In this document: positions 873 to 40,046 of the stretch, one piece after another | Position numbering within the stretch: the first letter of the stretch is position 1 | How the letters are laid out: each line of letters opens with the position of its first letter | Assembly: GCA_964621085.1 (NCBI GenBank) | Contig: CAZUKY010000002.1 | Span: 22,637 to 86,636 of the forward strand | Direction: 5' to 3' | Source of the DNA: an uncultured Gammaproteobacteria bacterium | GTDB taxonomy: Bacteria > Patescibacteriota > Patescibacteriia > JACQRZ01 | DNA length: 64,000 nucleotides | Program-made: the position numbers and the translations under genes | The notes under the pieces: generated by a model | What the model saw: the letters and a program-made list of their open reading frames with translations, nothing else | Told to the model about the DNA's origin: nothing | The model's database searches: none

Positions 873-876
873 GTAT

Positions 877-904
877 GACTCAGGAATCAGGACTCAGGAA
901 TCAG
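877..904. repeat. Short tandem repeat, 14-nt unit gactcaggaatcag x2 plus a partial copy
   Basis: Direct tandem copies read in the sequence between the SBP gene stop and pilin-like gene 1. Confidence 0.6.
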
Positions 905-943
905 GAATTGCGGCCATCATTCCCGCGCCGCGGCTGGCGGCGG

Positions 944-2311
944 ATGGGTATCATGGCAGCAGGTGTCTTTTGCATCTTTGCGGTTTTTATTTTGACCACC
1001 GCTCTTCCTGTTGCGGCGTACAAGTCGACAGGCATCATTCCGAGCGAGTGCTACGGCAGTGGCAACTACGGATGGGGCGGGATCATGCTTCTGATCGGCA
1101 ACATCATCAAGTTCGCACTCGGCTTGTCCGGCACGATCGCGCTTCTGATGTTTTTTGTGGGCGGCTACTTCTGGATCTTCGGTGGCGCCTCGGAGAGCAA
1201 TATCAAAAAAGGCAAAGAGTTCATGACGAATGCCGTCATTGGACTTTTGATCGTGTACGGCAGCTGGGTCGGCGTGAACTACTTCGTCGCAACACTTACG
1301 ACGCCGGAGGGTCAGCGCATTCAGGCTCAGGGCCTGCTCTTCGGTCAGCCGTGGAACCAGTTCGCCCGAGAAACCGAGGTCTGTATCGAGATCGCCAGAA
1401 GCTCAAGAGGCGGCGCATCGATACCGGAGATGAAGGCACCGAAGCCAGCGGCACCAGCGGCGATTCCTGGCAATACTATTAATCACCAGATCACAACCTG
1501 TAAAAAAGAAGATATAAAGCCTGACGCAAAGCCGGCAGGGTCGAACTGCCGATCAAGTGCGTGCAATTGTAAGTCGGGTAGGTGCGACGCAACAGGCGTA
1601 TGTATGCCTGAAGAGATGTCTGAGCAAGTTGCGGAGAATTCGAGGGGTAACTGTTGCTATTTTACGGAAAACTCAGACGGTTCATTTAAGCGAGAGAGTC
1701 CCCGAGTCCACAACGCACAGGGATGTCGAGATCTCATAGCTAGAAGTAGCGATGCTTCATATAAGCGAGATGTCTACTTTTGTGCGACAGAGGCAGGAGC
1801 CGATCCAAAAAATGAAGCAATATGCTTTCAGTATCCGGCTCTCGGGGCATCAAAAACTGATTTTAATTCCGCTTACTTCAAGCAAGGACAGTGTCCGAAA
1901 AGGATAAATATCCGGGCCGCCGGCCTGCAACAACTGCCACCACCGGAGGCGACCGGAGTATGTTGTTATAACTTGAAGAAACGAGAGACTTCAGGAGTTA
2001 GTACAATAACAACCTATTCAGCAGAAGGTGTTAAAAGGACCAGAAATAATTGTTCTAAAGCACGCGTCCAGTCAGCGTACCCATCTGCCACCACTGTAAT
2101 CAACGGCACAAAAACAGACTTGAAAGTAGAAGATACAAGATACTGCTATAAGCATACGAATCCGGAAAGTATTGCCACATCTGCGTGCGGTTCTCAGGTC
2201 GACGCAGGGACGGGTAGTTTTATAGAAGGAGCTCTTGAAGGGGAAGTGAGAGGTAAAAAATGGTATCCTATAGACCAAGAGGCACAAGGAATCACCTGTG
2301 AGCCCCGATAG
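944..2311 (+). CDS. VirB2/TrbC-like pilin-family protein, paralog 1, with ~310-aa Cys-rich C-terminal extension
   Basis: First in-frame ATG after the upstream stop gives a signal-peptide-like N-terminus (MGIMAAGVFCIFAVFILTTALPVAA). The conserved two-helix core is IIKFALGLSGTIALLMFFVGGYFWIFGG..KKGKEFMTNAVIGLLIVYGSW. About 30 Cys lie in the C-terminal region. The ORF track's earlier start at 341 overlaps the upstream gene and is rejected. Confidence 0.5.
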   Translation: MGIMAAGVFCIFAVFILTTALPVAAYKSTGIIPSECYGSGNYGWGGIMLLIGNIIKFALGLSGTIALLMFFVGGYFWIFGGASESNIKKGKEFMTNAVIGLLIVYGSWVGVNYFVATLTTPEGQRIQAQGLLFGQPWNQFARETEVCIEIARSSRGGASIPEMKAPKPAAPAAIPGNTINHQITTCKKEDIKPDAKPAGSNCRSSACNCKSGRCDATGVCMPEEMSEQVAENSRGNCCYFTENSDGSFKRESPRVHNAQGCRDLIARSSDASYKRDVYFCATEAGADPKNEAICFQYPALGASKTDFNSAYFKQGQCPKRINIRAAGLQQLPPPEATGVCCYNLKKRETSGVSTITTYSAEGVKRTRNNCSKARVQSAYPSATTVINGTKTDLKVEDTRYCYKHTNPESIATSACGSQVDAGTGSFIEGALEGEVRGKKWYPIDQEAQGITCEPR

Positions 2312-2318
2312 GTATTAT

Positions 2319-2669
2319 ATGAGCACATGGAAAGTTCTTATTGCAGTGATTTTTTTCTTGACACTTCTTTTCGCAAGTGTCGACCCAATCCTCGCTGCAA
2401 AGCTCGACGATCCGCTGAATATCGGCGAGAACAACAAGGGTATCCAGATCGTCGTCGGGCGGTTTCTCAAAGGACTGCTGGGGATATCGGGTGTTGTGGT
2501 GCTGCTGATGTTTGTCCTCGGGGGCTTTCAACTCCTTACCTCGGCTGGCGACAAGAAAAAATACCAGCAAGGAACAACGACGCTCTGGTGGGCCGCCGTC
2601 GGCATCCTGACGGTATTCGGCAGCTACGCGATCGTCGAGTTCCTCCTACGATCGTTTATTTCAGGGTGA
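2319..2669 (+). CDS. VirB2/TrbC-like pilin-family protein, paralog 2
   Basis: Signal-peptide-like N-terminus (MSTWKVLIAVIFFLTLLFASV). Core is LLGISGVVVLLMFVLGGFQLLTSAGDKKKYQQGTTTLWWAAVGILTVFGSYAIVEFL. The ATG at 2298 is an alternative start. Confidence 0.5.
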   Translation: MSTWKVLIAVIFFLTLLFASVDPILAAKLDDPLNIGENNKGIQIVVGRFLKGLLGISGVVVLLMFVLGGFQLLTSAGDKKKYQQGTTTLWWAAVGILTVFGSYAIVEFLLRSFISG

Positions 2670-2670
2670 T

Positions 2671-3381
2671 ATGAGCACGAGTCTGAAAAAAGTTTCATTG
2701 ATCATTGCGACAGCATGGCTGATCGGAGGCTTTTCGTTTGTGTCTGCAGAGGAAAGTCCGTCGGGTAGTGGCACATTTTTTTCATCGGACGGCAATTTGG
2801 AACCTTCCAACCCTTATGAAAACGATTACCAATCAGGAGTTCCTTCGACTTTGCAAAGCGCTCCGCTTTCCAATCCTTCACAGGTAGGACAGCTGAACTT
2901 TTGTCCTGGCGCCGGTACCACGCGGGCCGATATCACGACCGAGCAGGCATGCAACGCGTACTGCACGCATGAGAACAACTTTGAAAGGATGGAGGGCTTC
3001 GGTCTGAACAAATCGAAGTATGCCGACGTCGACTGCTGCTGCTGGAAGGGAAGCGTCACATCGCAACCCAAAAAAGTCACCTGCAGCGAGCTGCCGGATG
3101 GCACGTGCGAGCTTGGCAATACATTGAAAGGAGACGTCGCCAAGACGCCGCAGGAGTTTGCGGGGCGGATCATCAAGAACTTCTTGGGGATCGTCGGCGT
3201 GCTTGCACTCGTTATGTTTATGTGGGGCGGCGCGCAGATCATGATGTCTCGCTTCGGCGGCGACGATAAGACAAAATACCAGCAAGGCATCCAGACGCTT
3301 GTCGGCGCAGGCGCGGGCCTCGTTGTGATCTTTGGCAGCTACGCGCTCGTCGAGTTTCTCTTCTCCCGCCTCTTGTCGTAA
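2671..3381 (+). CDS. VirB2/TrbC-like pilin-family protein, paralog 3, with N-proximal Cys-rich insert
   Basis: Signal peptide MSTSLKKVSLIIATAWLIGGFSFVSA. Cys-rich segment (CPGAG..CNAYCTHEN..DCCCWKG..CSELPDGTCELG) precedes the core IVGVLALVMFMWGGAQIMMSRFGGDDKTKYQQGIQTLVGAGAGLVVIFGSYALVEFL. The ATG sits 1 nt after the upstream stop, consistent with translational coupling. Confidence 0.55.
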   Translation: MSTSLKKVSLIIATAWLIGGFSFVSAEESPSGSGTFFSSDGNLEPSNPYENDYQSGVPSTLQSAPLSNPSQVGQLNFCPGAGTTRADITTEQACNAYCTHENNFERMEGFGLNKSKYADVDCCCWKGSVTSQPKKVTCSELPDGTCELGNTLKGDVAKTPQEFAGRIIKNFLGIVGVLALVMFMWGGAQIMMSRFGGDDKTKYQQGIQTLVGAGAGLVVIFGSYALVEFLFSRLLS

Positions 3382-3384
3382 AAG

Positions 3385-3417
3385 TATCCCCATTCCGTCC
3401 GGAAAATGTGGTATACT
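3385..3417 (+). promoter_or_regulatory. Putative promoter: TATCCCCA, 16-nt spacer, extended -10 TGGTATACT
   Basis: Read directly: tatcccca(3385-3392), 16 nt, tggtatact(3409-3417), upstream of paralog 4. The same bipartite motif recurs at 5884 and 13113. Confidence 0.45.
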
Positions 3418-3468
3418 AACCATTACGTGAATAACTTTTTAAGCAGAGCCTTTGGCTCAATCGATCGT

Positions 3469-3855
3469 ATGGCACTTCGCAGGCTTTTCGCAGCCCTCTC
3501 TCTGGCCGGCATTCTCCTCGTTCCCGCAGGCGTGTTGGCGCAGGATCTCGACCCGTCGGATCCTGAAACGTTCCGGAAATACAATCCGCCCGTTTCTTCG
3601 AACGTCGAGACGGATATCGGCATGATCGCGAAAAACATCATCGGCGTCGTTATGGGTTTCCTTGGACTGTTCGCCGTGGTCATCATTATCATTGCGGGTT
3701 TCAAGTGGATGACGGCGGGCGGTGATGAGAAAAAGGTTGAAGAGGCGAAAAACCAACTCATCCAAGGCGCGATCGGTCTTGTCATCATCATCGCCTCCTG
3801 GAGCATCGCCTTTTTCGTCATCGAGCAGATCGCAAAGGTTGTCGGTGGGCAGTAG
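3469..3855 (+). CDS. VirB2/TrbC-like pilin-family protein, paralog 4
   Basis: Start chosen at MALRRLFAALSLAGILLVPAGVLAQD (signal peptide), downstream of the predicted promoter. Core is IIGVVMGFLGLFAVVIIIIAGFKWMTAGGDEKKVEEAKNQLIQGAIGLVIIIASWSIAFFVIEQI. Confidence 0.5.
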   Translation: MALRRLFAALSLAGILLVPAGVLAQDLDPSDPETFRKYNPPVSSNVETDIGMIAKNIIGVVMGFLGLFAVVIIIIAGFKWMTAGGDEKKVEEAKNQLIQGAIGLVIIIASWSIAFFVIEQIAKVVGGQ

Positions 3856-3874
3856 GGCATAAAACAACCTCCCC

Positions 3875-4324
3875 ATGCTTTTTCAAAAGACAGCATTCCT
3901 CTTTTTCGCGTGGAGCGCTGTCTTTTTGTTTTTCTTCGCCCCCATCAGCGGCACATTTTCGTTTGTTGATGCAGCCGAGTCTTCATCCGGGCCCGTGAAT
4001 TTGAATGTCTCCGGCACGGGCCTGGAAGACACCGGCAAGGCGGCTGGATTCAAAGAGGGGCAAAACCAATTGCCAGGGTATATCGGCACCGTCCTCAAGG
4101 CATTTTTTGGCGTGTTGGGTATTATCTTCCTCGCCTTGACGATCTATGGCGGCCTGCGGTGGATGCTCTCGCAGGGAAACGACACCGAAATCAAAGGCGC
4201 CCGCGATACGATTATTAGCGCGGTTATCGGCATTGCCATCGTTGCAGCATCCTATGCGATTACAGACTTTGTCATCGACCAGCTTGTAAAAAGCGGGGTA
4301 AAACAGGAGATTATCGGCGAGTGA
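3875..4324 (+). CDS. VirB2/TrbC-like pilin-family protein, paralog 5
   Basis: Hydrophobic N-terminus. Core is FFGVLGIIFLALTIYGGLRWMLSQGNDTEIKGARDTIISAVIGIAIVAASYAITDFVIDQL. Confidence 0.5.
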   Translation: MLFQKTAFLFFAWSAVFLFFFAPISGTFSFVDAAESSSGPVNLNVSGTGLEDTGKAAGFKEGQNQLPGYIGTVLKAFFGVLGIIFLALTIYGGLRWMLSQGNDTEIKGARDTIISAVIGIAIVAASYAITDFVIDQLVKSGVKQEIIGE

Positions 4325-4325
4325 T

Positions 4326-4724
4326 ATGCAAATCCTTTCTTCCATCATTTCTCGTGGAGCCGTGTTTGTGGGCGTATTCTTGCCGGCAACGGCAGTTTTT
4401 GCGGACAATCCTCCTGCAAACACAATAAAAGGAAATCTGAAAGAGAGTGCTAGTAGCGTATTTTCGCAAAGCGAGATTGCTGTTGTCATCGGCTCGATCG
4501 TCACTGCGCTTCTTGGAGTTCTGGGTGTCGTTTTTTTGGCGCTGTTGATCTATGGCGGCTTTCTGTACATGACTGACCTGGGCGATGAGAAGCAGGCGGC
4601 AACAGCAAAGAAACTGATCACGAATGCAACCATCGGGTTGGTTATCGTTGCAGTCTCGTTCGCGGTGACGAAGTTCGTGCTGGATAGCATCGGCGGGGCT
4701 GCCGGAGTAAGTGGTAGTTTTTAA
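4326..4724 (+). CDS. VirB2/TrbC-like pilin-family protein, paralog 6
   Basis: Signal peptide MQILSSIISRGAVFVGVFLPATAVFA. Core is LLGVLGVVFLALLIYGGFLYMTDLGDEKQAATAKKLITNATIGLVIVAVSFAVTKFVL. Start lies 2 nt after the upstream stop. Confidence 0.55.
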   Translation: MQILSSIISRGAVFVGVFLPATAVFADNPPANTIKGNLKESASSVFSQSEIAVVIGSIVTALLGVLGVVFLALLIYGGFLYMTDLGDEKQAATAKKLITNATIGLVIVAVSFAVTKFVLDSIGGAAGVSGSF

Positions 4725-4732
4725 GACCGTAT

Positions 4733-5317
4733 ATGGCAGAAATAAAGAAAAGAACAGTAACGCGTGCTCGTACGGGCCGCAGCGGTCAGGCAACACGAAA
4801 GCCGCGCGTCGCGGCTCGTCCTGTGCGTCGGAAGCGGCCCGCGATCTCGGCGGAGAATATTCCACAACTCGAAGCGGTCATCATAGAAGAGGGGAGAAGT
4901 GCAGAGCCTGGCCACATCATCTTTATGCAGCGCACAGGCGTCGTTCTCAACCGTGCGTTTAGCGTCACGACGGCGACAGTCCTTTCCCTTTCCCTTATGC
5001 TGGGTGGCATGACAACGTTCGCCGAAGGACTCAAATTTAGTGACGTGCAAAACAATGTCGGCGCCGAACTTGATCTGGCGACAGTCATCGCGAATATCAT
5101 CAACGTATTACTTGGTTTACTGGGTGTCGTTTTTGTGTTATTTGTTATCTATGGCGGGTTTCTCTGGATGACAGACAAGGGCGATGAGAAGCAGGCAGAG
5201 CACGCGAAAGCCGTCCTGAAAAACTCCACCATCGGCGTTGTCATCGTTGCGCTTGCCATGGCGATTTCCAACTTTGTGATCAGCACTCTGGCAACCAAGG
5301 TCTTTACAGGCGAGTAA
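4733..5317 (+). CDS. VirB2/TrbC-like pilin-family protein, paralog 7 (possible internal start at 4925)
   Basis: Core is LLGLLGVVFVLFVIYGGFLWMTDKGDEKQAEHAKAVLKNSTIGVVIVALAMAISNFVISTL. The first 64 codons are strongly basic and atypical. The Met at 4925 (MQRTGVVLNRAFSVTTATVLSLSLML) would give a signal-peptide-like start. Confidence 0.45.
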   Translation: MAEIKKRTVTRARTGRSGQATRKPRVAARPVRRKRPAISAENIPQLEAVIIEEGRSAEPGHIIFMQRTGVVLNRAFSVTTATVLSLSLMLGGMTTFAEGLKFSDVQNNVGAELDLATVIANIINVLLGLLGVVFVLFVIYGGFLWMTDKGDEKQAEHAKAVLKNSTIGVVIVALAMAISNFVISTLATKVFTGE

Positions 5318-5370
5318 GACTTTCGTACGCTTTTTTTCAAAATAGCTATAATCTCAATAATTTTGATCAT

Positions 5371-5811
5371 ATGAAAAAAGCTATTGCACTTTTCGGCGCA
5401 ACTGCTGCGATCTGCTCGCTTCTTGTGCCGGTTGCCGTTTTCGGTGCCGAAACGACTGTTTCTGGTTCGCTCGGCGGATCGACCGCCCCAACTGGAATAG
5501 GACAGGCGCTCCAGGGCGGCGCAACCGCTGAACTGGAGAAAGAGGACCTGTTTAAGACAAAGACCGACTTCATCACGATTGTTGCCAATATTATCAGTGT
5601 TATTTTGGGCTTCCTCGGACTGATCCTGGTCGCCTTCATCATCTATGCCGGCTTCCTCTGGATGACGGACAACGGCGACGAGAAACGCACCGAAACAGCA
5701 AAGAATATTCTCCGCAACTCGATTATCGGCCTCATCATCATCGTGGTAGCGTATGCGATTTCAAACTTTGTCGTGAGTACGCTGGCAACTGACGTCTTGA
5801 AGCAGCAGTAA
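5371..5811 (+). CDS. VirB2/TrbC-like pilin-family protein, paralog 8
   Basis: Signal peptide MKKAIALFGATAAICSLLVPVAVFGA. Core is ILGFLGLILVAFIIYAGFLWMTDNGDEKRTETAKNILRNSIIGLIIIVVAYAISNFVVSTL. A TATAAT -10 lies at 5347-5352 upstream and a terminator follows downstream. Confidence 0.55.
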   Translation: MKKAIALFGATAAICSLLVPVAVFGAETTVSGSLGGSTAPTGIGQALQGGATAELEKEDLFKTKTDFITIVANIISVILGFLGLILVAFIIYAGFLWMTDNGDEKRTETAKNILRNSIIGLIIIVVAYAISNFVVSTLATDVLKQQ

Positions 5812-5832
5812 GGAAGGCAAAAAGAAAGTAAA

Positions 5833-5861
5833 AGAGCGTCTGCGTACAGACGCTCTTTTTC
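5833..5861 (+). terminator. Rho-independent terminator closing the pilin-like array
   Basis: agagcgtctg / cgta / cagacgctct 10-bp stem followed by a T-run (ttttc). Confidence 0.7.
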
Positions 5862-5883
5862 AGTTGCGCCTTTTGCGCAAGGT

Positions 5884-5919
5884 TATCCCCATGAATAGAT
5901 ACCGAAAGATTGGTATACT
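5884..5919 (+). promoter_or_regulatory. Putative promoter: TATCCCCA, 19-nt spacer, TGGTATACT
   Basis: tatcccca(5884-5891), 19 nt, tggtatact(5911-5919). Lies about 35 nt upstream of the tail-fibre-like gene start. Confidence 0.45.
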
Positions 5920-5954
5920 TGAGCATATAGTGAGCGGCATTCGCCTGAACGGCG

Positions 5955-8900
5955 ATGCGGCATTTTCTCACATACCCCATGCCATCTCAATTTTCCAAAA
6001 GAGGATGGGCGCTCCTTACTGCAGTCGGAGCGATTTTTGCGTTGCTGACTGCAACCGCCTCGTCTACCTTCGCCCAACCCAAAAGCACCGAGGGTCCCAG
6101 CGCGACGCTCAATGAGCTGCTCGAGGATGAGACGCTCAAGAAGGTTATCAATCGCGGCGCGACCGATCAAAGCCGCAACGATGCGAGCGAGTACACGGGC
6201 CCGATCATCTTTGGGGGAAGCCTGGAGGTGCGCGGCGGGTTAAAGGGTGTACCAGACTCAGCCGATCCGAGTGATCCGAAGAAAAACAAGCTTTTGCTGC
6301 AAAAAGACGGCGGGAACGTCGGAATTGGAACGGCAACGCCGATAAACGCAGCGTTGGAAGTGGTTAAGGCGGGGGGCGTACAGGGACGGTTTGCGTACGA
6401 CGCCGATCGCTATATTGATATTATTGGGAATGTCGGCGTTAAGCTTCGCTCGGCAGACAGTCAGAACAACCCCCTTGAGATCGTAAAGGAGGGAAAGGGC
6501 GAGTTGGTTTTCAAGACCGGCCTCAATGGTGCAACAGCAGCCCGACTGATAATTCTTCAGGATGGCAACATTGGCATCGGGACGGCCGATCCGAAAAACA
6601 AACTGACGATTGGCTCAAGCAACAAGATTCAAGAGACGAAAGGGCTGGGCTTAGGCGCGGATCAGAATGTTGTCGAGTTGGTGCATTCAACGTACGGAAA
6701 CGGCTACGGATCAAAGCTCTACGGCCGCGATTTCGGTAATGGAGGGACGGGTCTTGCCATCGCTACGCGCGGAAATACGGGAACATGGACAGACGCCGTT
6801 ACGATCCGCGCAGATGACGCGACCGGCGGAAAGAACGGTAACGTCGGCATCGGCACGATTTCGCCGAATGCCGCACTTGCTATTTTTCGGAACGGCGTGA
6901 ATGCTGCGATCGACCTTGGATCGAAAGGCGAGAACGGCAACTATTGGTCGTTACGGCATGATGGCAGTGATGACAGACTCGCATTTTGGTTCAAAGATGG
7001 CGGCGATAAGTTGTCGCTTGGCAAAGACGGCGTGTTGTCTGGCAATGCATTCTCATCCCTTGCGAAGCAGTACGACTGGGTATCTTTGGGCGCGCGCACG
7101 ATGACGAGTCCCCAGCTTGCCGGCATTCCGCTCTGCGGCGCAAGCAACTTCAACAACCCTCTCGAACCGATTTGCTATACCGGCAGCGGCTCGAACTACG
7201 AGTTCAAGGAGCGCCAGGGCGTCGCCCATCCGAATACAAAACAGAAGGATGGCACGATCGCAACTCACGCACTTACTGCCGAGCGAAAGATCGCGATCGG
7301 TCTTCCTGGCTCGCAACAGAACGCTCTGTTGAACCCATCGTTGGAAATCAATCAGCCCTTCTACAGTCGCATCTTCCTGGGCGCGACGCAGTACCAACCA
7401 GAAGCCCAGCACGTGAAGATGGTCGTGGACGCCCGCGGCGACGGCCGCCTGGGCGGTGCGAACATGGGCCAGATCGGCACGATCTCGGGTCATCCCCTGA
7501 GCCTTTTGACAAATGACAGGGAACGCCTGCGCATCAGCGAATATGGCGGCGCAGAGATTTTTGCCTCGGAAAACAACACCAACGCTCTGGTCGTGAACGG
7601 CACGGTTCGCATCAAGAAGGTCGGTAACGAGCACGGCGGCTTGTATGTTGACGGCCCCGCTCAATTCCGCAACGGCATCACCTTCCCGCAGCTCGATGCA
7701 AATGGCAATCCAACCGCAACGAACCTCGCGTATATCAATCAGGCCGGCGACGCGATGTTTAGGAACCTACAGGTTAACGGCACCCTCACTGACAAGAGCG
7801 GCAATGAGTTTAAGCCCATCTGGTCTGGTGACGCAGCAAAGGCGTATCTTGCGAGCGGATTCGAAAACGCATCGGTCGGTATCGGTACGAATGATCCGAA
7901 GGCGAAGTTGCATGTGGAAGGTGATAATGGTCTTATGCTATCTCGAGCTGGCAACCAGACCTTGGGTGGAGGCCGTATAGGGCTTTTAGTCGGCTCCATC
8001 CTGAATGTTATTCAAAGCGCGGGTACTGGAAATTTGCATATATCCGGCGGCCTTGTCCCTGGTTCAGATGATCCTGTTCGCACTTCAGTAATTCTTCAGC
8101 CTACGGATGGTTATGTCGGTATAGGAACTATGCAACCGGGAGAAATACTCGCCTTGGGGGGCTCAAAGCCAGCGATTGATCTTGGCGCGGGTACTGAAAA
8201 CAGAGAGTTGAATGCAGGAAAAATCGCCTATCAGCGTTGGAGTGACGGTCTTGATATTGTTGGGGCGGGTGGCCCTAATGTAGCTGATCGAAAGATATAC
8301 TTTTATAATGAAGGAGGCGCTTTTTTTAACGGAGATGTGCAATTGAGCGCCACTAAAACATTACGGAGCTCAGGGCGAATGCATATCACGGGTGAAGAAA
8401 ACTTATATCTACTTAATAAGGGGGGAGTTGTAGTCAGTAATGCTTGGGGAGGAAACGGCAGTTTGACTGTAGATGGCAAAACCACTATCGGAAATGCAAG
8501 CACGAGAGGACAGGTGATGCTCGAGGTGCTTGGGAAAGCAGAGATTCATGGAGACGTGAACCTCAAACTCAGTAGCGCGAACAATCCGCTTGCGAAAAAG
8601 GGCTCGTATCTTGCCTACGATCCAAAGGTACAAGGTTTCGATATTGCAGAAAAATTTTCAACGGACTCCGATGTTGAGCCGGGGGATGTACTTGTTGCTG
8701 GTAAGAAGTCAAACACATTGACTCTATCCTCGAGACAATATCAAAAAGGCGCGATTGGCGTTGTTTCCACATCACCCGCTATCGTTTTTGAAGGAGGTGA
8801 GATAAAACTTGCCGCAGAAGCGCGGTTTTCGAAAGGGAAAAATCCCCCAGTAGCACTTTCAGGGCGTGTTCCAGTAAAGGTTACACTCGAAAATGGCCCG

Positions 8901-9131
8901 ATTCATCCTGGTGACTACCTCACGGCTTCATCAAGAAAGGGGTATGCGATGAAGGCAACCGAACCCGGCCCCATAATCGGCATCGCGCTTGAGTCCTATA
9001 CTTCGAGAACGTCAACAGAAAAGATCATGATGTTCGTGAATACTTCGGAAGGAAATACAGAACTGGTCACCCAGGAGTTATTGAAGCTTCGCAAGGAACT
9101 GGACGAGGTGAAGAAAAAGCTTCGAAAATAA
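5955..9131 (+). CDS. Phage tail-fibre-like secreted protein with C-terminal intramolecular-chaperone-like domain
   Basis: Signal peptide (..MPSQFSKRGWALLTAVGAIFALLTATASSTFAQP). The alternative start at 5979 is in frame. Five copies of the x-V-G-I-G-T-x-x-P-x-x-K/A-L motif (GNVGIGTATP, GNIGIGTADP, GNVGIGTISP, ASVGIGTNDP, GYVGIGTMQP) typical of tail-fibre-domain proteins. The C-terminus (PVALSGRVPVKV..GPIHPGDYLTASSRKGYAMKATEPGPIIGIALESY) resembles peptidase G2 / S74-type auto-processing chaperone domains. Terminal coiled coil is ELLKLRKELDEVKKKLRK. Confidence 0.55.
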   Translation: MRHFLTYPMPSQFSKRGWALLTAVGAIFALLTATASSTFAQPKSTEGPSATLNELLEDETLKKVINRGATDQSRNDASEYTGPIIFGGSLEVRGGLKGVPDSADPSDPKKNKLLLQKDGGNVGIGTATPINAALEVVKAGGVQGRFAYDADRYIDIIGNVGVKLRSADSQNNPLEIVKEGKGELVFKTGLNGATAARLIILQDGNIGIGTADPKNKLTIGSSNKIQETKGLGLGADQNVVELVHSTYGNGYGSKLYGRDFGNGGTGLAIATRGNTGTWTDAVTIRADDATGGKNGNVGIGTISPNAALAIFRNGVNAAIDLGSKGENGNYWSLRHDGSDDRLAFWFKDGGDKLSLGKDGVLSGNAFSSLAKQYDWVSLGARTMTSPQLAGIPLCGASNFNNPLEPICYTGSGSNYEFKERQGVAHPNTKQKDGTIATHALTAERKIAIGLPGSQQNALLNPSLEINQPFYSRIFLGATQYQPEAQHVKMVVDARGDGRLGGANMGQIGTISGHPLSLLTNDRERLRISEYGGAEIFASENNTNALVVNGTVRIKKVGNEHGGLYVDGPAQFRNGITFPQLDANGNPTATNLAYINQAGDAMFRNLQVNGTLTDKSGNEFKPIWSGDAAKAYLASGFENASVGIGTNDPKAKLHVEGDNGLMLSRAGNQTLGGGRIGLLVGSILNVIQSAGTGNLHISGGLVPGSDDPVRTSVILQPTDGYVGIGTMQPGEILALGGSKPAIDLGAGTENRELNAGKIAYQRWSDGLDIVGAGGPNVADRKIYFYNEGGAFFNGDVQLSATKTLRSSGRMHITGEENLYLLNKGGVVVSNAWGGNGSLTVDGKTTIGNASTRGQVMLEVLGKAEIHGDVNLKLSSANNPLAKKGSYLAYDPKVQGFDIAEKFSTDSDVEPGDVLVAGKKSNTLTLSSRQYQKGAIGVVSTSPAIVFEGGEIKLAAEARFSKGKNPPVALSGRVPVKVTLENGPIHPGDYLTASSRKGYAMKATEPGPIIGIALESYTSRTSTEKIMMFVNTSEGNTELVTQELLKLRKELDEVKKKLRK

Positions 9132-9232
9132 CAACCACTCATCTAATCCGCAGCATAAGGCGAAGCGATGACGTGATCCGTATATGAGCAAACGGAATCA
9201 GCGCTCTCGCTTCGCCTCTTCAGTAGAAAGGC

Positions 9233-12200
9233 ATGAAACCGTCAGCGCAAAATAATATATTCGCCAAGGGATTCCTCGGAATCCTTTTTGGCGTTTTAGC
9301 TACTGGTATTATCGGTTTCTTTCTCAACGTGGACCCAATTCAGGCCGCTTGGTGTATTACAAAAGGGGAAAAAACGGACTGCATCCCGAACTTCAATTAT
9401 ACAAGCGGCACGCCCGTCAATCAAACCTATCAAATCGAAGGAAAGACAGCTGATCCGAATAAGAAGTGGACGATAACGAACCAGCGTTCCGGCTATTGCA
9501 ATAATAATGTCTGTGTCAACGATCTTGGTCTGCCGAAATTTGAGATGGTTTCCCGAGGAGATGATAACGATACGGATGATAAGATCCAAATACGCCTGAG
9601 GGTCCAGGGCAACACCGGAAGCTATTGGTATGTACGAAAAAATAGTGGATACAGTAACGATGACGGGTACCCGAATACCGGAGATCCCCAAGAAGATCGA
9701 GGTCTTTCAAGGATCCAATACGATGGTATTCAAGGATTAAGAGGCGGGAATTACGCGCAAAATCTTTGTCCCGGGGATAATGGCAGTAGCTGGGACGACA
9801 AATTCGATGTCACTCAGGCAGGCGGATATTTTACTGCGGAAGCACCAGGACCGCGTACGTGCTATGACTCAAAGCTCGTCACTGTAACACATAAGGCGCC
9901 GCAGCAAGTTACAGACCCGAAACATCAGGACACATGGCGAGTGTATGTGTATAGCCCCCAGGATGGGATGATGCACTATACAGATCACACAGACGCTGGT
10001 ACTTATCCGAATGGGTGGAATGCCTATTGGAATAACTGCTGGAAGGGATGGCCATTAAATTGTGAAGGTCGCTGGGAGCAGCCACGCTATCCGGAGTGCG
10101 GCTGCGGCAAAAATGACCCCACTGAAAAGCTCTGTATAAGTTACGGCGTGGCCGGCTTACAATCAAACAATAACTGCTACGACTTCTTTAAAAAGCACAT
10201 CGGCTTTGGGACGAAAACAGAAAATTCTAAAACAGTGACAGAGATGAGGTACCGCGAGGTTACCACGGTGCCCCGATTTAGTCTCGCTACGCTCAACAAT
10301 AAAACTGCATATGCTCCCCATAGAGAAGGTGCGGTATGGCCTGACAATACCTACTTACTCTACTATGATACAAAGAATTTAAATCGAACGGACGGGGCAA
10401 AAAATAAGGTAAAGGCCGTTCAGAACGAGCAGCCGGTTTTTTCCGATCTTAACAAGTGCATTTTTGACCGTAAATTTCTTGAAGTAACACATCATGGTTC
10501 GTACACTGATTATGTTGTTCAAGCGGAAGGACTTCTCGGCAACAGGTTCATCGGATGGCTTTTGTTAAGCCGCGATGAACAAAATGCTATAAAACAAAAG
10601 ATTCTTACGCATGATAAAAGGTTCTACGACAGATCTATAAAAGACGCGCAAAATGAGGAACAAGTAGGGCTGGTACTCATGAGTTTTAAAGCCACCGATG
10701 CATTCAAAAATGACGTCATCAATTCCAAGTTACTAAAAGAGAAGGAGTTTAACGTCATATTCAAGGGAGTATCGCAAACCGTCCAGGCGGCTACCGAAGT
10801 CCCCAAAGAAAAAGATGAGGGCATTGCATGTCGCGCACAACTGCCCTCAGAGTTCGGCATGACCAGTACATATACGTACTTTACTGGTCCAGCTTCAATA
10901 CCGCCTGTTGAGATTCGTTCGTTTCGGGCGACAGCGGTCGGTCCGGATAGTGACTTTGTCGGCGAGACAACACAAGAGCTTACAAGTATTGGAAGCGGCG
11001 CTAATGTTCTCCCCGACCCAACTAATCGATTTTCGTCTGCGCGTGCTGACCTGAGTGCTGGCGCGGGCGAAGTATTGGATCTGCAGGCATACCAGGATAC
11101 CGTCAATCTCAGACTGGAGTGGCAAACTCCCTTTGCCGGCCGGGTACGGATTTTTCAAAAAGATGAGCGGCATGCGACGGCGACGGATCTCAGTCAGTTG
11201 GCGTGTTTGGGTAGATGGGGGGACATCATTGACAGTAATGACCCATGCCCGGCAAGGGGAGAAGTAACATCTGTACGGGAGCTTACGGTTGAGGGACTTC
11301 AGAGCAATAAGAACTATACGTTTTATATCGTCGTCGAAAATAAGCGCGGCGACAGCACCGCGCTACAGCCGACTCAGTGGGCTACAGCCGCCAGACTCGA
11401 CGTTACTGTCCGGCCGGCACCGATTGTCGTCACGAGCGCAACCGCGAAATACGTGAAAGGAAAGGAGAACTGCAAGAGTAATGCATTACCGGGCCAGACC
11501 AATACTCCGACCGAGTGCGCGGAAATTACCTGGAAAGTCGATGGTAGACCGACAGAGATAGTTCTTAAAGCGCCGAAAGGATGGAATAGGACAGTATGGA
11601 CAGACCATACATTCGCTTCGCACTCCTACACGTCAAACGGTGATTTTGACAGATATTTTCCTATTCATACAAGCGAAATCAATCGTTATCGCTCAAATTT
11701 TATCCTCATTGCAAAACGCGGCGATATTACATCGGCCGAGTTTCCTTTTGAGCTTCGAGGCGTGCCGCGCGATCCTATGACAATCGCGGCAGAAGGATGG
11801 AAGGATGGCAACAATGTTCGTGACAAGTCTCTTTTTGAGGCGATTCTCAATACCGACTGCGATGAGTGGTGGCCAGGTTTAGATTTGATATGCAGAGGAA
11901 CGACATTTAGCAGTATTTTTAATATCGCTCGTGAGTCAATATCGTCATCGCTCGCCGGTGCACTGGCAGTAGTGACTGGAGGTGCCGGCGCACTCCTTAA
12001 GCCGATTGTCGATTTTGTTCTAAGGGTTGTTGAGCCGATTGCCTTTGGATTGGTTGGTATGATAGGAAATTTAGTGCAGGCGAACAACGAGAATCTTATT
12101 GACTGGAAGAAGGACATTAATTGGCAGCCATTTCTCGGTTCCTTCGGACTGAGTTTCGCAGTCAATTCATTTACCGGCGTGCTTCAGGCGATCTTTGGAA

Positions 12201-13069
12201 AATGTGCGGCAGCGCCCCTCGTTGGTGCAATTCACCAGGTTATTGATCTTGTCGGCACGCTCCTCAGAATCGCTGGAATTAATTTAGGCTGTCCGGATGG
12301 TGAAGAAAATAGCTGCGAAATGGGAGCAGATATGGGGAAGACAATGGGAATAATTGCCGGTGAAACAGTTTATTATGCAGTAACCGGCGATAACTCTTGG
12401 AAGCCAGAGGTCTGCCCTGGTGAAAAACCTCCGGAAGAGGAAGAAGATCCGTGTACTCCGAAGCCAGGCGAACCGTTCGATTACGCGAGATCGCAAGAGT
12501 GTTTTGGAGAGAAGTATCTGCCCCAACGCTATGGATGCAACGAAGAAAATAAGTGCGTGCCCGCTGAAGCCGGTACCTTTGCTGATCCGTTATGCAGTAA
12601 CACATGCGATGTGTCAAAAATTGTCGAGAAGAAGGTAACGGAAATAGTAAAAGAAGACACAAAATCAATATTTGACTGCTCGGGTACTGTGGATGGAACC
12701 GAAGTCGGTCAAGGTTATGGCGGTGAGCGATATGCTAACGAATACCAGTATAGAACGCGCTCAAAGAAAGCGGTTGCCGATGCGCTTATGTCAGCATATT
12801 ATGTTGCGACGTGTGGTAAATTTTGCCTGAGAAAGGACGCGGCTCTTAGTTGTTCTGAGGATCTCTACAACAATAATAAAAACAATTTCGATTCAATATT
12901 TAATACCGCAGATTCGTATATTGATGACAAAAATAGACGGAATCTAAGTACCAAGGTGCATGATAATCTGTTCCGTGATACGTTTGATGGTCTCATGAAA
13001 GAGGCAGCTTCATGCGGCATTAAAGATGTTACTAGGTTTATTCCCGTCCCCTGCGCATTCGCACAATAA
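9233..13069 (+). CDS. Large Cys-rich membrane-anchored hypothetical protein (1278 aa)
   Basis: N-terminal TM helix (FAKGFLGILFGVLATGIIGFFLNV). Many Cys throughout. Internal Gly/Ala-rich hydrophobic segment (AGALAVVTGGAGALLKPIVDFV..FGLVGMIGNL). Visibly AT-richer than flanking genes. No family recognised. Confidence 0.5.
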   Translation: MKPSAQNNIFAKGFLGILFGVLATGIIGFFLNVDPIQAAWCITKGEKTDCIPNFNYTSGTPVNQTYQIEGKTADPNKKWTITNQRSGYCNNNVCVNDLGLPKFEMVSRGDDNDTDDKIQIRLRVQGNTGSYWYVRKNSGYSNDDGYPNTGDPQEDRGLSRIQYDGIQGLRGGNYAQNLCPGDNGSSWDDKFDVTQAGGYFTAEAPGPRTCYDSKLVTVTHKAPQQVTDPKHQDTWRVYVYSPQDGMMHYTDHTDAGTYPNGWNAYWNNCWKGWPLNCEGRWEQPRYPECGCGKNDPTEKLCISYGVAGLQSNNNCYDFFKKHIGFGTKTENSKTVTEMRYREVTTVPRFSLATLNNKTAYAPHREGAVWPDNTYLLYYDTKNLNRTDGAKNKVKAVQNEQPVFSDLNKCIFDRKFLEVTHHGSYTDYVVQAEGLLGNRFIGWLLLSRDEQNAIKQKILTHDKRFYDRSIKDAQNEEQVGLVLMSFKATDAFKNDVINSKLLKEKEFNVIFKGVSQTVQAATEVPKEKDEGIACRAQLPSEFGMTSTYTYFTGPASIPPVEIRSFRATAVGPDSDFVGETTQELTSIGSGANVLPDPTNRFSSARADLSAGAGEVLDLQAYQDTVNLRLEWQTPFAGRVRIFQKDERHATATDLSQLACLGRWGDIIDSNDPCPARGEVTSVRELTVEGLQSNKNYTFYIVVENKRGDSTALQPTQWATAARLDVTVRPAPIVVTSATAKYVKGKENCKSNALPGQTNTPTECAEITWKVDGRPTEIVLKAPKGWNRTVWTDHTFASHSYTSNGDFDRYFPIHTSEINRYRSNFILIAKRGDITSAEFPFELRGVPRDPMTIAAEGWKDGNNVRDKSLFEAILNTDCDEWWPGLDLICRGTTFSSIFNIARESISSSLAGALAVVTGGAGALLKPIVDFVLRVVEPIAFGLVGMIGNLVQANNENLIDWKKDINWQPFLGSFGLSFAVNSFTGVLQAIFGKCAAAPLVGAIHQVIDLVGTLLRIAGINLGCPDGEENSCEMGADMGKTMGIIAGETVYYAVTGDNSWKPEVCPGEKPPEEEEDPCTPKPGEPFDYARSQECFGEKYLPQRYGCNEENKCVPAEAGTFADPLCSNTCDVSKIVEKKVTEIVKEDTKSIFDCSGTVDGTEVGQGYGGERYANEYQYRTRSKKAVADALMSAYYVATCGKFCLRKDAALSCSEDLYNNNKNNFDSIFNTADSYIDDKNRRNLSTKVHDNLFRDTFDGLMKEAASCGIKDVTRFIPVPCAFAQ

Positions 13070-13112
13070 AAAGAGGAGCTCTAGGGCGGAGCGCTGATGC
13101 GGTGAATGAACC

Positions 13113-13148
13113 TATCCCCACAACAAACAGAACAGGGAGTGGTATGAT
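13113..13148 (+). promoter_or_regulatory. Putative promoter: TATCCCCA, 19-nt spacer, TGGTATGAT
   Basis: tatcccca(13113-13120), 19 nt, tggtatgat(13140-13148). Lies about 70 nt upstream of the giant protein gene. Confidence 0.45.
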
Positions 13149-13217
13149 AGAAGTGCCGTTCTTATTTGAACGGCAGGGCGTTTACCGCCATTTTAGGCAA
13201 CGTATATCAAGAGGCGC

Positions 13218-21761: not shown

Positions 21762-21772
21762 GGAGTGAATAT

Positions 21773-24016
21773 ATGCAGAGCGGATTACAATGGATTCAAA
21801 AGAATAGCCGTGCTGCCTTTCTTGCACTTTTTGTCGTTGGTGTGCTTGGGGGTACATACCTACTTGTATCGTATCGCGGTACCGGTCCGGAGCAGGGCGG
21901 CCGGGACGGTTTTGTTTTTTTTGATGGTGCCTGGCACCCTGCCTTGAAAGAAGGGGATAGTGCATCTCTGAAACGTCTCTTACCGGTGCGTTTTTCATCA
22001 GCAGGCGGAGATGAGGTTGTCTCGCTATCGGCAGGCGAGGTTCTCAAGGGCAGCATATCCGTCGATTGGCTCTCGCCTGCTGCTCAGAGCATCACTGCCT
22101 CTGTTTTTGACCGGGAAACGTATGCAAAAATCGGTCAGGGAGTTTTTTCTCTCAAGCGAAATGAGATCTCTTCCGAGGGTTTTGTCCCATTTGAGGGGAC
22201 GGTCACGTACAGCGCCGCATCAAGCACGGACGGCTTTCTCCTTTTTGATGCAGGAGCTTCTCTTGCTGGAGAAACGCCAGATGCGCACGAAAAAGCTGAC
22301 GAAAGGGAAATAACAGCATACAGCATTTCGGTACTCCTCATTCCATCCGGGACTAATAAAAAACTTGTTGAGGGATTGAAGCAGTCGAAACAGTATGCAG
22401 CCCAAAATGCGTCAATTCGGATTATTGCATCGGGTGCGGAGGGAGTGGCGTTAGGTGAAGGGGGTGTTGGTGATGAAGCGGATGTCGTGAAGATAGAAAA
22501 AGTCATTGGAACTCAGACAGGAGCGGCAGGAGAACAAATGGTGATCAATTCTGGCGAAATGCTGAGGGGCTTGCTGCGCACTGATATTCTCGCCGCACAA
22601 TCAGTCACCACAGTCGCCGCTACTGTCGTTGACTCAAAAAAATTGAAGACGATCGGAAGTGGGACACTCTCCCTCAAGCGAGGCGAGACCTCTTCTGATG
22701 GCTTTGTCCCCTTTGAAGGCACGGTCACGTATAGCGGCGCATCAAGCACGGACGGATTTCTCCTGTTTGAGGCGGATGGGACTTCTGTCGGATCCAGTAT
22801 TCCGGTGATCCTCATTCCATCCGGCACAGATAGAAAGCTTGTCGAGGGGCTAAAAATGTCAAAGCAATACAACGCCTCTGAGGCGGTGATCCGCATCCTT
22901 CCGGGCAATGAGACGGAGCAGATGCCCGCCGGCCTGAAGCAGTCTTTTTCCGGTTCACTTCGCACTGATATTCTCGCCTCACAATCAGTCACCACAGTCG
23001 CCGCTACTGTCGTTGACTCAAAAAAATTGAAGACGATCGGAAGTGGGACACTCTCCCTCAAGCGAGGCGAGACCTCTTCTGATGGCTTTGTCCCCTTTGA
23101 AGGCACGGTCACGTATAGCGGCGCATCAAGCACGGACGGATTTCTCCTGTTTGAGGCAGGAAAGTTCCGAACACCGCAAGGATCGGAAGCAACTGCGGGG
23201 GGTGCAAGTGTTCCTTTTCCACTTGTCGCTCTTCCCGTGTTGGGTAATCAGCAAAAGCAAGAGCAGTCATCGATCCAGCCGAGTCGCTTTGACACGGCAG
23301 ATGCATCAATCCGCCTCTTCCCCTCAGGGGCAGGCACTGGTGATGGGTCGCAGACTTCTCTTCGGGGAGCTATTCATAAGGATGTGCTTGGTGCGCAACC
23401 CACCCCATCTATTTCTGCGCATATCATAGATCCAAAGACGACCTCCGTGATCGGCAGCGGCTCGTTTTCACTTAAACATGATGAAATCGGGAATGACGGG
23501 TTTGTCCCGTTCGATGGACAGATCACACAGAACGGCTCGCTCGGCTCGGAAGGAATCATGCTTTTCCAGATGGGTGCGGAAAAAGACGCGTTCTATGCCG
23601 CACTCGTTTCATTAGACTCTAAGGGACGAATAGCTGTTGTGCAGACTCGTCTTGAAGAGAAGCCGCCGGAAGCAGCGACTCCTCCGCCTTCCTCATCTTC
23701 ATCATCAGCGAACGCGGCATCTCAACAGGATGCAATAAAACTGGAACGAATTTCTGTCGTGCCGCGTGTCGGGCAAGGACCGCTTACACCGCCGCTTGCG
23801 AAGGATGGGGAGTGCCGTATTACCGGATGCAATAGGGAAGTTTGCGCTGATCGGGATTCACACTCTTCATGCGAACAGTACCTGCCCGAGTATGCATGCT
23901 ACGCAGGCGCCGTCTGCGAGCGCCAAAGCAACGGGGCGTGCGGATGGACACAGACAAAGGAACTCGCGCAATGCATTGAGGGTGTTCAGCGTGCAGGAAC
24001 CCAATCTTCACAGTAG
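21773..24016 (+). CDS. Membrane-anchored protein with four Gmad2-like Ig-fold repeats and a C-terminal Cys-rich module
   Basis: GGAG Shine-Dalgarno sits 8 nt upstream of the ATG at 21773. N-terminal TM (AAFLALFVVGVLGGTYLLV). Four repeats end in GFVPFEGTVTYS/GFVPFDGQITQN...GFLLFEA, a pattern reminiscent of GerM-associated Gmad2 domains. C-terminus is CRITGCNREVCADRD..CEQYLPEYACYAGAVCERQSNGACGW. Confidence 0.5.
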   Translation: MQSGLQWIQKNSRAAFLALFVVGVLGGTYLLVSYRGTGPEQGGRDGFVFFDGAWHPALKEGDSASLKRLLPVRFSSAGGDEVVSLSAGEVLKGSISVDWLSPAAQSITASVFDRETYAKIGQGVFSLKRNEISSEGFVPFEGTVTYSAASSTDGFLLFDAGASLAGETPDAHEKADEREITAYSISVLLIPSGTNKKLVEGLKQSKQYAAQNASIRIIASGAEGVALGEGGVGDEADVVKIEKVIGTQTGAAGEQMVINSGEMLRGLLRTDILAAQSVTTVAATVVDSKKLKTIGSGTLSLKRGETSSDGFVPFEGTVTYSGASSTDGFLLFEADGTSVGSSIPVILIPSGTDRKLVEGLKMSKQYNASEAVIRILPGNETEQMPAGLKQSFSGSLRTDILASQSVTTVAATVVDSKKLKTIGSGTLSLKRGETSSDGFVPFEGTVTYSGASSTDGFLLFEAGKFRTPQGSEATAGGASVPFPLVALPVLGNQQKQEQSSIQPSRFDTADASIRLFPSGAGTGDGSQTSLRGAIHKDVLGAQPTPSISAHIIDPKTTSVIGSGSFSLKHDEIGNDGFVPFDGQITQNGSLGSEGIMLFQMGAEKDAFYAALVSLDSKGRIAVVQTRLEEKPPEAATPPPSSSSSSANAASQQDAIKLERISVVPRVGQGPLTPPLAKDGECRITGCNREVCADRDSHSSCEQYLPEYACYAGAVCERQSNGACGWTQTKELAQCIEGVQRAGTQSSQ
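22571..22770 (+). repeat. Intragenic direct repeat, copy 1 (~200 bp)
   Basis: Matches 22961-23160 with a single mismatch across ~198 nt (gccgcacaa vs gcctcacaa). Confidence 0.85.
22961..23160 (+). repeat. Intragenic direct repeat, copy 2 (~200 bp)
   Basis: Near-identical to 22571-22770 and in the same reading frame. Both copies encode a Gmad2-like repeat. Confidence 0.85.
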
Positions 24017-39967: not shown

Positions 39968-40046
39968 AAGCACGGCCGTTTTTCGCTACGATAAGAGCAT
40001 TGAATTCCGTCTGAAAAGAAGCGGATTTTTGAGCTTTACCTGGATT

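Follow-up and report, generated by a model that had tools for sequence, protein, structure and literature searches.

What kind of system is encoded by a run of twelve consecutive surface-protein genes that stands among housekeeping genes in a Patescibacteria chromosome? The genes occupy positions 875–24016 of the plus strand, with coordinates that were verified, in a 64-kb stretch of contig CAZUKY010000002.1 (hereafter the window), and lie between a gene for a solute-binding protein (SBP) and ileS. They comprise eight small pilin-like genes followed by four large genes, for a phage-fibre-like protein, a 1278-aa Cys-rich protein, a giant repeat protein and a repeat protein of some 750 residues (Table 1). 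A first-pass annotation had read all twelve as one functional system, a new surface appendage. We hold, with moderate confidence, that this is a composite, co-regulated cell-surface locus of an Uhrbacteria/Magasanikbacteria-like Patescibacteria bacterium and no self-contained new machine; most plausibly, it would serve host-cell contact. Of the earlier proposal, co-regulation stands and the unitary machine does not, the locus being composite: relatives keep the pilin array without the 18-kb block that follows it here.

A check of the open reading frames (ORFs) and a hydropathy scan agree with the description of twelve exported or membrane-anchored products. Each has at its N-terminus a hydrophobic segment suited to export or anchoring, pilin 7 only if an internal start is assumed. 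The product of ileS is at most 63% identical to any in the species-representative genome set, and its best relatives, at 56–63% identity, come from metagenome-assembled genomes of Candidatus Uhrbacteria and Magasanikbacteria, as expected if the organism belongs, as had been surmised, to the candidate phyla radiation (CPR) or Patescibacteria.

That the small proteins are VirB2-like pilin paralogues is borne out by profile matches and by architecture. The Pfam family PF18895 (T4SS_pilin, where T4SS denotes type IV secretion system) recognises seven of the eight above its gathering score of 26.6 bits, at 31–46 bits, with pilin 1 slightly under the cut-off at 25.0 bits. NCBIfam NF045849, which models a pilin-like conjugal transfer protein, matches all eight, and pilins 4 and 8 exceed its cut-off of 40; with PF04956 (TrbC) none of the eight scores above 23.5 bits, the cut-off being 27.9. 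An N-terminal hydrophobic leader followed by two hydrophobic helices was found in seven of the eight by the hydropathy scan, and alignment of the cores, which are 18–51% identical between paralogues, revealed a conserved, short and charged hairpin loop, G(G/D)(D/E)xK. Pilin 7 shows the two helices and no leader at the threshold used; because its N-terminal stretch is long and basic, its real start seems to be internal, with a leader at that point. The VirB2-like pilins presumably polymerise here into an extracellular pilus. Type IV pilus pilins were also considered and were rejected, since the class III leader G|F(T/S)LxE is absent from the eight sequences and the window encodes no T2SSE ATPase.

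The annotation had drawn attention to the lack of T4SS ATPase and phage genes nearby, and this observation holds across ~83 kb, comprising the window, a stretch of ~9 kb upstream and a 10-kb stretch past infB that extends ~8 kb beyond the window end. ORFs of at least 150 aa were taken in the Pfam scan of the window, and the flanks were covered as called genes. No VirB4, VirB6, VirB11, VirD4 or type IV pilus ATPase was found in either set, and neither were genes for capsid, terminase or integrase. The FtsK encoded at 37676–39967 was tried as a coupling protein and discarded, as its 4TM, alpha and gamma domains are those of chromosomal FtsK.

Pilin arrays of this kind are already described. A survey of 3,035 Patescibacteria assemblies found VirB4 in 2,417 (~80%) and VirB2-like pilins in 1,948 of the VirB4-positive ones, near virB4 in just 1,135, so that the pilins are apart from virB4 in ~40% of the genomes with both (Quinonero-Coronel et al., PMC12102498). 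It also lists 441 arrays of VirB2-like pilins, with 2–11 genes each, across 383 assemblies, their pilins being on average 25% and at most 54% identical (PMC12102498). Eight divergent tandem genes on a Patescibacteria chromosome, with comparable arrays in relatives, place the window array, as judged from its sequence, among these T4SS pilin arrays, whose chromosomal location and low paralogue identity it shares. The argument that a conjugation system does not account for the pilins thus finds no support, for such arrays are known and often lie far from virB4 (PMC12102498).

Tandem PF18895 proteins with a leader and two helices also make up SEML1_0006–0019 of Southlakia epibionticum ML1 and the 'Sec secreted array' of Nanosynbacter lyticus TM7x. 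In Southlakia epibionticum, a T4SS cluster that includes the pilins is essential for epibiotic growth (PMC10633639; review PMC12857230), whereas no T4SS gene was found within ~83 kb around the array here. The window array departs from known Patescibacteria arrays in three further respects: its site between SBP and ileS is fixed, a Cys-rich domain of 330 aa extends its first member, and it has a promoter element in common with fibre and adhesin genes. Through NF045849, a model of 80 residues, the eight proteins also resemble Mbov_0395 and MMCAP2_0565 of Mycoplasma, which like the Patescibacteria host is wall-poor or monoderm and has a T4SS of the MPF-FATA type. Those two are single genes beside VirB4 and VirD4 in mobile integrative conjugative elements (ICEs), unlike the eight paralogues at a fixed site here. 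Since the survey takes the MPF-FATA class to lack VirB2-like pilins (PMC12102498), the link may bear on the origin of the Patescibacteria pilins. In another Patescibacteria genome, a T4SS_pilin domain is fused to a lytic transglycosylase (SLT) domain (L083, 285–1535, minus strand), 8.5 kb from a homologue of the fibre, with a gene for a type IV pilus ATPase in the vicinity.

Because arrays away from virB4 are common in Patescibacteria, the absence of an ATPase gene is no argument for an appendage independent of a T4SS. The proposal that the twelve genes form one undescribed, self-sufficient appendage, assembled without a T4SS ATPase, would accommodate the lack of T4SS, type IV pilus and phage assembly genes in ~83 kb, the export of all the products and the motif that links three of the units (see below). 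We nevertheless consider it very unlikely. No route but a T4SS is known for the polymerisation of VirB2-type pilins, and the parts of the locus separate in evolution, since relatives keep the array without the large genes and the fibre module of another genome, L089, has no pilins nearby.

The evidence from relatives was obtained with a pilin-core hidden Markov model (HMM), built from the eight window cores and run on 80 ileS loci. In L003, L004 and L012, the closest ileS relatives with upstream sequence present, 6–7 pilin-like ORFs lie directly upstream of ileS in each case. The order in L003 and L012 is SBP, pilins, one unidentified minus-strand gene (~500 aa), ileS and ruvA. A gene for a signal-peptide peptidase (SPP; PF06550) precedes the SBP gene, complete at 482 aa, in the stretch upstream of the window (L082), and an SPP gene stands ahead of SBP in L003 too. 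As relatives keep the block of SPP, SBP, pilin array and ileS, the array looks to have been inherited vertically at the SBP–ileS chromosomal site. The four large proteins have no homologue in any of the 80 ileS loci, and on this ground we regard the 18 kb from 5955 to 24016 as lineage-specific at the ileS site. Within the array, pilin 1 scores 98.9 bits on the pilin-core HMM and has its orthologues, at 44–47% core identity, in the extended pilins that open the L003 and L012 arrays, and pilins 4–8 are mutually 50–59% identical and less like the pilins of relatives. This pattern points to one conserved specialised member, pilin 1, and to recent diversification of pilins 4–8.

Co-regulation of the older and the newer parts of the locus is indicated by a promoter motif, TATCCCCA-N16/19-TGGTAT[AG], of which there are exactly three copies in the 64 kb against 0.00 expected. 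All three are intergenic and on the plus strand, and they precede pilin 4, the fibre gene and the giant gene. The −10 part alone, TGGTATRMT, has nine sites in the window, and because six of these are outside the locus, TATCCCCA is the specific part of the motif; the window has one further copy of it, on the minus strand and inside a gene. A scan with the consensus sigma-70 promoter did no better than on shuffled sequence (13 sites found, 11.2 expected). The composite motif also precedes a pilin gene inside each of the L003, L004 and L012 arrays, and in L089 the sequence ahead of the fibre gene reads TATCCCCT-N19-TGGTATACT. Moreover, four of five motif matches in 1.5 Mb of other Patescibacteria loci stand ahead of pilin or fibre genes, where we estimate that chance would give about one match. 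The shared motif and the co-regulation read from it in the first-pass annotation are therefore upheld, both by the three copies and by recurrence in four other genomes. With one lineage-conserved element, TATCCCCA plus an extended −10, at the head of each, the pilin 4–8, fibre and giant units are probably activated in concert by a single regulator or sigma factor, and the motif suggests a lineage-wide regulatory signal for pilin and fibre surface genes.

A gene for an extracytoplasmic function (ECF)-type sigma factor lies in opposite orientation ~1–8 kb past the window end, some 3–10 kb beyond infB (L086, 1–6930). It has a DUF5667 neighbour, and the same segment encodes a 1236-aa protein without a family, a TPR protein and an S8 peptidase with FG-GAP repeats. 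This sigma factor is a candidate reader of the promoter; there is no link between it and the TATCCCCA motif.

The motif bears directly on a second alternative, a chance neighbourhood of unrelated envelope genes, in which the array adjoins, without functional coupling, a variable island of generic adhesin or S-layer-like genes and the motif amounts to no more than a strong promoter of general use. The restriction of the 18-kb block to this lineage, the two orphans among its genes, the recurrence of TGGTATRMT at six window sites outside the locus and the general wealth of CPR genomes in giant surface proteins (PMC8080830) would all suit such a neighbourhood. We consider it unlikely nonetheless. 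In plus orientation TATCCCCA occurs only before the three units, though the 64 kb include the rpoBC, ileS, recA and infB operons, and the motif is kept ahead of pilin and fibre genes in other genomes.

The first of the large proteins, of 1058 aa, had been described as a tail-fibre-like protein with an auto-chaperone-like C-terminus, a description confirmed by PHROG matches, a profile match to gp12 of bacteriophage phi29 and a fold search. Its hydrophobic segment comprises residues 17–38 in the hydropathy scan. Two PHROG tail-fibre families match it weakly (6.8e-9 and 2.3e-8), and no other protein of the locus has PHROG matches. Among 5.8 billion clusters its only full-length relative is itself; what it has in common with other proteins is the GN[VI]GIGT repeats and the C-terminal ~150 aa, the sole well-conserved part. 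In an alignment of 16 such C-terminal domains, D896, A898 and E899 are invariant in all 16. The C-terminal profile matches phi29 gp12 by sequence with an E value of 1.9e-4, the DxAE of the fibre aligning with DFAE of gp12, the first residues of the solved fragment 3gqh, and the fold search returned the fold of that C-terminal fragment. The Pfam family Peptidase_G2 (PF11962), an autoproteolytic cleavage domain, is matched by seven of the 16 aligned homologues (best 1.3e-6). A search of the PDB by sequence yielded no match to the fibre as a whole.

According to Xiang et al. (2009), as cited in PMC13317679, the gp12 domain is an auto-chaperone that aids tailspike trimerisation and is missing from the mature protein. 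A gp12-type domain is D4 of the marine podovirus tailspike Dpo31 (PMC13317679), and we also found such domains in virion proteins of Pseudomonas jumbo phages. By homology, the fibre would trimerise and be cleaved before D896. It shares the C-terminal auto-chaperone-type domain with the phi29 gp12 pre-neck appendage (Peptidase_G2; PDB 3gqh, 3suc and 6qz9) at ~20% identity, but its body is made of GN[VI]GIGT repeats and not of a recognisable gp12 β-helix. Also unlike gp12, it has a Sec-type leader and a conserved membrane protein as partner, and its gene is chromosomal, in surroundings devoid of phage genes. Its homologues, too, have N-terminal hydrophobic, Sec-like leaders and are located among housekeeping genes in other Patescibacteria. 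An export leader is not expected on a virion fibre, which is assembled in the cytoplasm. From the Sec-like leader and the housekeeping neighbours, neither of them features of a virion protein, we conclude that this is in all appearance a domesticated phage-type fibre exported by the cell.

The gene downstream of the fibre gene encodes a protein that had been annotated as Cys-rich and anchored; its 36 Cys and an N-terminal membrane segment accord with this. The membrane segment is followed by a predicted β-rich ectodomain, a Gly-rich hydrophobic helical region (~890–1050) and a Cys-rich tail. No Pfam family matches the protein, and a word-index homologue search found only the protein itself, but full HMMER with residues 80–1278 retrieved five distant relatives, three of them complete-length (L087, L088 and L089). 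Many Cys, Trp and Gly residues are invariant in this family, including some in the Gly-rich hydrophobic region. In all four genomes, that of the window included, the 1278-family gene follows a gp12-type fibre gene on the same strand, immediately so in L087 and L088 and at a distance of three genes in L089. The C-terminal 190–212 aa of the L087, L088 and L089 fibres are 44–52% identical to the window fibre. Conservation of this gene order across genomes of 40–56% G+C argues for a functional pair. Because the fibre, once its leader and C-terminal domain were lost, would lack an anchor, we infer that the 1278-aa protein anchors or cooperates with the mature fibre at the membrane.

Between the two genes of the window lies a stable RNA hairpin, whose stem runs for 10 base pairs without interruption and is not followed by a U-run; it may be a processing, stabilising or attenuating element. 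G+C at third codon positions (GC3) is 0.46–0.47 over 8532–13069, which spans the fibre C-terminal domain and the 1278-aa gene, compared with 0.59 for the fibre body and 0.62–0.72 for most housekeeping genes. Judging by this drop, the chaperone domain and its partner gene may have come as a cassette by recombination from a lower-GC relative. In L087 and L089, the 1278-family gene is followed by a gene for a metzincin-like protein of ~350–380 aa with the motif HExxHxxGxxH, which has no NCBIfam family. Related PA14-like regions lie nearby in both genomes, the Pfam PA14 match being to the L089 protein. The window has no metzincin-like counterpart; the giant gene and the last gene stand there instead.

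The phage-type body and C-terminal domain of the fibre, the GC3 drop and the resemblance of the pilins to Mycoplasma ICE proteins raise the question of a decayed prophage or ICE, with the fibre as a leftover virion protein and the pilins as leftover transfer genes. This origin is extremely unlikely in our view. Neither the window ORFs scanned nor the called genes of the flanks include one for an integrase, terminase, capsid, relaxase, VirB4 or VirD4, and a search of the window with Rfam found three tRNAs only, all far downstream of the locus. The fibre carries an export leader, and its neighbours are pilins, surface proteins and housekeeping genes, not a phage tail module. Finally, the ORFs are long and intact, and the array occupies the same chromosomal site in relatives with ~60% ileS identity.

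The giant protein had been described as Ig-repeat-containing and Trp-rich, and both descriptions hold. The immunoglobulin (Ig)-like family Big_7 (PF17957) matches it with 142 bits over five stretches, other Ig-like families being sub-threshold, and a repeat map shows ~20 divergent Ig-like repeats at approximately residues 530–2500. It starts with an N-terminal hydrophobic segment in the hydropathy scan and ends in three Trp-rich stretches (20700–21761, approximately residues 2500–2847), namely YVWWSWWGGG, YNYWSWRWPAWRWGGG and the terminal GWIWDWWSGWRRGTYCAYY. They lie at the end distal to the anchor, and their composition suggests that they may bind a membrane interface or glycans. Tandem Repeats Finder detected no DNA repeats in the large genes, the protein repeats being too divergent. 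Many giant surface proteins are encoded per CPR genome and have been proposed to act as host-binding surface fibres (PMC8080830). Like the giant proteins of Vampirococcus lugosii, which have Ig, PKD or fn3-type repeats (PMC8080830), the window protein is very large, membrane-anchored and repeat-rich; unlike the giants of CPR epibionts, it ends in Trp-rich loops and lies behind the promoter element of the pilins. It has no close homologue among those examined. A Glucodextran_B-type Ig-like family, which matches the giant protein weakly, also matches a protein encoded at 39807–40754, where it is combined with an HTH_25 (RodZ-like) domain.

The last gene is called from 21773 (747 aa), and its ORF opens at 21746, overlapping the giant gene stop (756 aa). 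The Gmad2 label that it had been given was not confirmed: PF10648 reaches an E value of 0.05 and 14.3 bits against a cut-off of 25.7. The repeat map does bear out its four internal repeats, which belong to no assigned family. TIGR04292, a Cys-rich family, gives 20.8 bits against a cut-off of 200, and the word-index search returned the 756-aa protein alone, so that it is an orphan.

Taken together, these observations are consistent with the following scheme. The eight pilins would be exported through Sec and, after leader removal, be inserted in the membrane as two-helix hairpins, from which a VirB4-driven T4SS encoded elsewhere would pull them out and polymerise them into a pilus, pilins 1 and 3 being candidate minor or tip subunits. 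The phage-derived fibre, also exported through Sec, would trimerise with the help of its gp12-type auto-chaperone, which would then cut itself off before D896, and the mature fibre would be anchored by, or cooperate with, the 1278-aa membrane protein. The giant Ig-repeat protein and the anchored repeat protein probably act as long-reach adhesins, and the pilin 4–8, fibre and giant units would be turned on jointly for host-cell contact.

Several points weigh against this scheme. Neither in the window nor in its flanks, ~9 kb before it and 8 kb after it, was a gene for a T4SS ATPase or channel found, and a T4SS elsewhere in the genome is an assumption drawn from its ~80% prevalence in Patescibacteria. 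The motif is missing ahead of pilins 1–3, whose transcription may continue from the SBP gene. L089 keeps the fibre and the 1278-family protein without pilins within 10 kb on either side, from which it follows that pilins and fibre are not an obligate pair. The window fibre itself gives no match to PF11962 at E ≤ 1. The role of the 1278-aa protein, deduced from gene adjacency, is a guess; an AlphaFold2 (AF2) model of residues 500–1278, from a four-sequence alignment, had a pLDDT of 44 with long helices drawn, and was not used as evidence.

A bolder form of the scheme, which we put forward tentatively and regard as improbable rather than likely, is that the fibre and the 1278-aa protein constitute an undescribed surface device of Patescibacteria, a phage-derived, self-cleaving trimeric fibre docked on a dedicated Cys-rich membrane protein, in a lineage-specific TATCCCCA host-contact regulon with T4SS pilins. 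The Gly-rich helical region of the 1278-aa protein might then engage the host membrane.

Table 1. Coordinates of the features discussed (window positions unless another stretch is named)
Feature	Position	Strand	Remarks
Solute-binding protein gene, 3' part	24..872	+	Pfam SBP_bac_1 2.9e-9; upstream boundary
Pilin 1	875..2311	+	VirB2-like hairpin and ~330-aa Cys-rich C-terminal extension (21 Cys)
Pilin 2	2319..2669	+	PF18895 31.0 bits; NF045849 28.4 bits; L001 gene call
Pilin 3	2671..3381	+	PF18895 36.2 bits; 8 Cys
Motif copy 1	3385..3417	+	TATCCCCA-N16-TGGTATACT, before pilin 4
Pilin 4	3469..3855	+	PF18895 46.2 bits; NF045849 46.1 bits
Pilin 5	3875..4324	+	PF18895 32.4 bits; NF045849 36.5 bits
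Pilin 6	4326..4724	+	PF18895 36.9 bits; NF045849 39.4 bits
Pilin 7	4733..5317	+	PF18895 41.9 bits; core 59% identical to pilin 8
Pilin 8	5371..5811	+	PF18895 37.7 bits; NF045849 46.2 bits
Intrinsic terminator-like hairpin	5830..5859	+	13-bp stem, then UUUUU; minimum free energy (MFE) −26.7 kcal/mol, z −3.5
Motif copy 2	5884..5919	+	TATCCCCA-N19-TGGTATACT, before fibre gene
Secreted fibre-like protein, 1058 aa	5955..9131	+	Leader, GN[VI]GIGT repeats, gp12-type C-terminal domain, terminal helix
Auto-chaperone/self-cleavage domain	8640..9038	+	Fibre residues 896–1028; predicted cut F895/D896 of DIAE motif
Stable RNA hairpin	9158..9217	+	Between fibre and 1278-aa genes; MFE −31.3 kcal/mol, z −2.8
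1278-aa Cys/Trp-rich protein	9233..13069	+	36 Cys, 24 Trp, N-terminal membrane segment
Motif copy 3	13113..13148	+	TATCCCCA-N19-TGGTATGAT, before giant gene
Giant protein, 2847 aa	13218..21761	+	N-terminal anchor/leader, Ig-like repeats, Trp-rich C-terminal region
Last gene, 747/756 aa	21773..24016	+	Anchored; four ~110-aa repeats, Pro/Ser linker, C-terminal 8-Cys domain
ileS	24100..27048	+	tRNA-synt_1 5e-144; downstream boundary, syntenic anchor
Metzincin-like/PA14-like neighbour genes	L087 7503-9105; L089 13942-15093, 17598-20300

Some gene starts call for comment. Pilin 1 starts at 875 according to the gene caller, with 944 as an alternative, and the SBP stop precedes position 875 by 2 nt. 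Pilin 2 has 116 aa as called, from an ORF that opens at 2298. The true start of pilin 4 is probably 3469 (MALRRLF...) rather than the ATG at 3406, because the latter sits beneath the −10 box. Pilin 3 carries a Cys-containing insert of ~130 aa between leader and hairpin. The terminator-like hairpin after pilin 8 closes the pilin unit and parts it from the fibre unit.

The remaining genes of the window are housekeeping genes, among them ruvA, femAB, rpoB, rpoC, ftsK, recA, efp, infB and those for S6 and RNase Y. The 10 kb upstream are likewise housekeeping in content (HIT, GluDH, a TPP enzyme, AldDH, NDH2, PGI, SPP and SBP), and the 10 kb beyond infB encode L20, L35, IF3, SmpB and the ECF sigma factor, among others. 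SPP is a presenilin-type peptidase, located with SBP at 7747–9998 of L082, and its L003 counterpart is at 2344–4655. The sugar-type SBP is an orphan, with no ABC permease or ATPase gene beside it. SPP or SBP could have a role in pilin processing or in sensing, or their position could be plain conserved synteny.

Patescibacteria account for a large share of bacterial diversity, and their cultured members live attached to host cells. To our knowledge, the molecules of host contact are known for a few Saccharibacteria only, in which T4SS genes with their pilin arrays are essential. The pilin array described here is of an already described kind; the new elements are the gp12-type fibre with its predicted Sec export, the conserved membrane partner of this fibre and the shared promoter element. 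The locus thereby gives three testable leads in a class other than Saccharibacteria. The first is a promoter element tying pilin arrays to other surface genes, from which a host-contact regulon may be defined computationally; the second, a domesticated phage fibre with a predicted self-cleaving chaperone domain as a cellular surface protein; and the third, the conserved, uncharacterised membrane partner of that fibre. Current ideas are not overturned by these findings; rather, the search for host-recognition determinants in Patescibacteria is refined.

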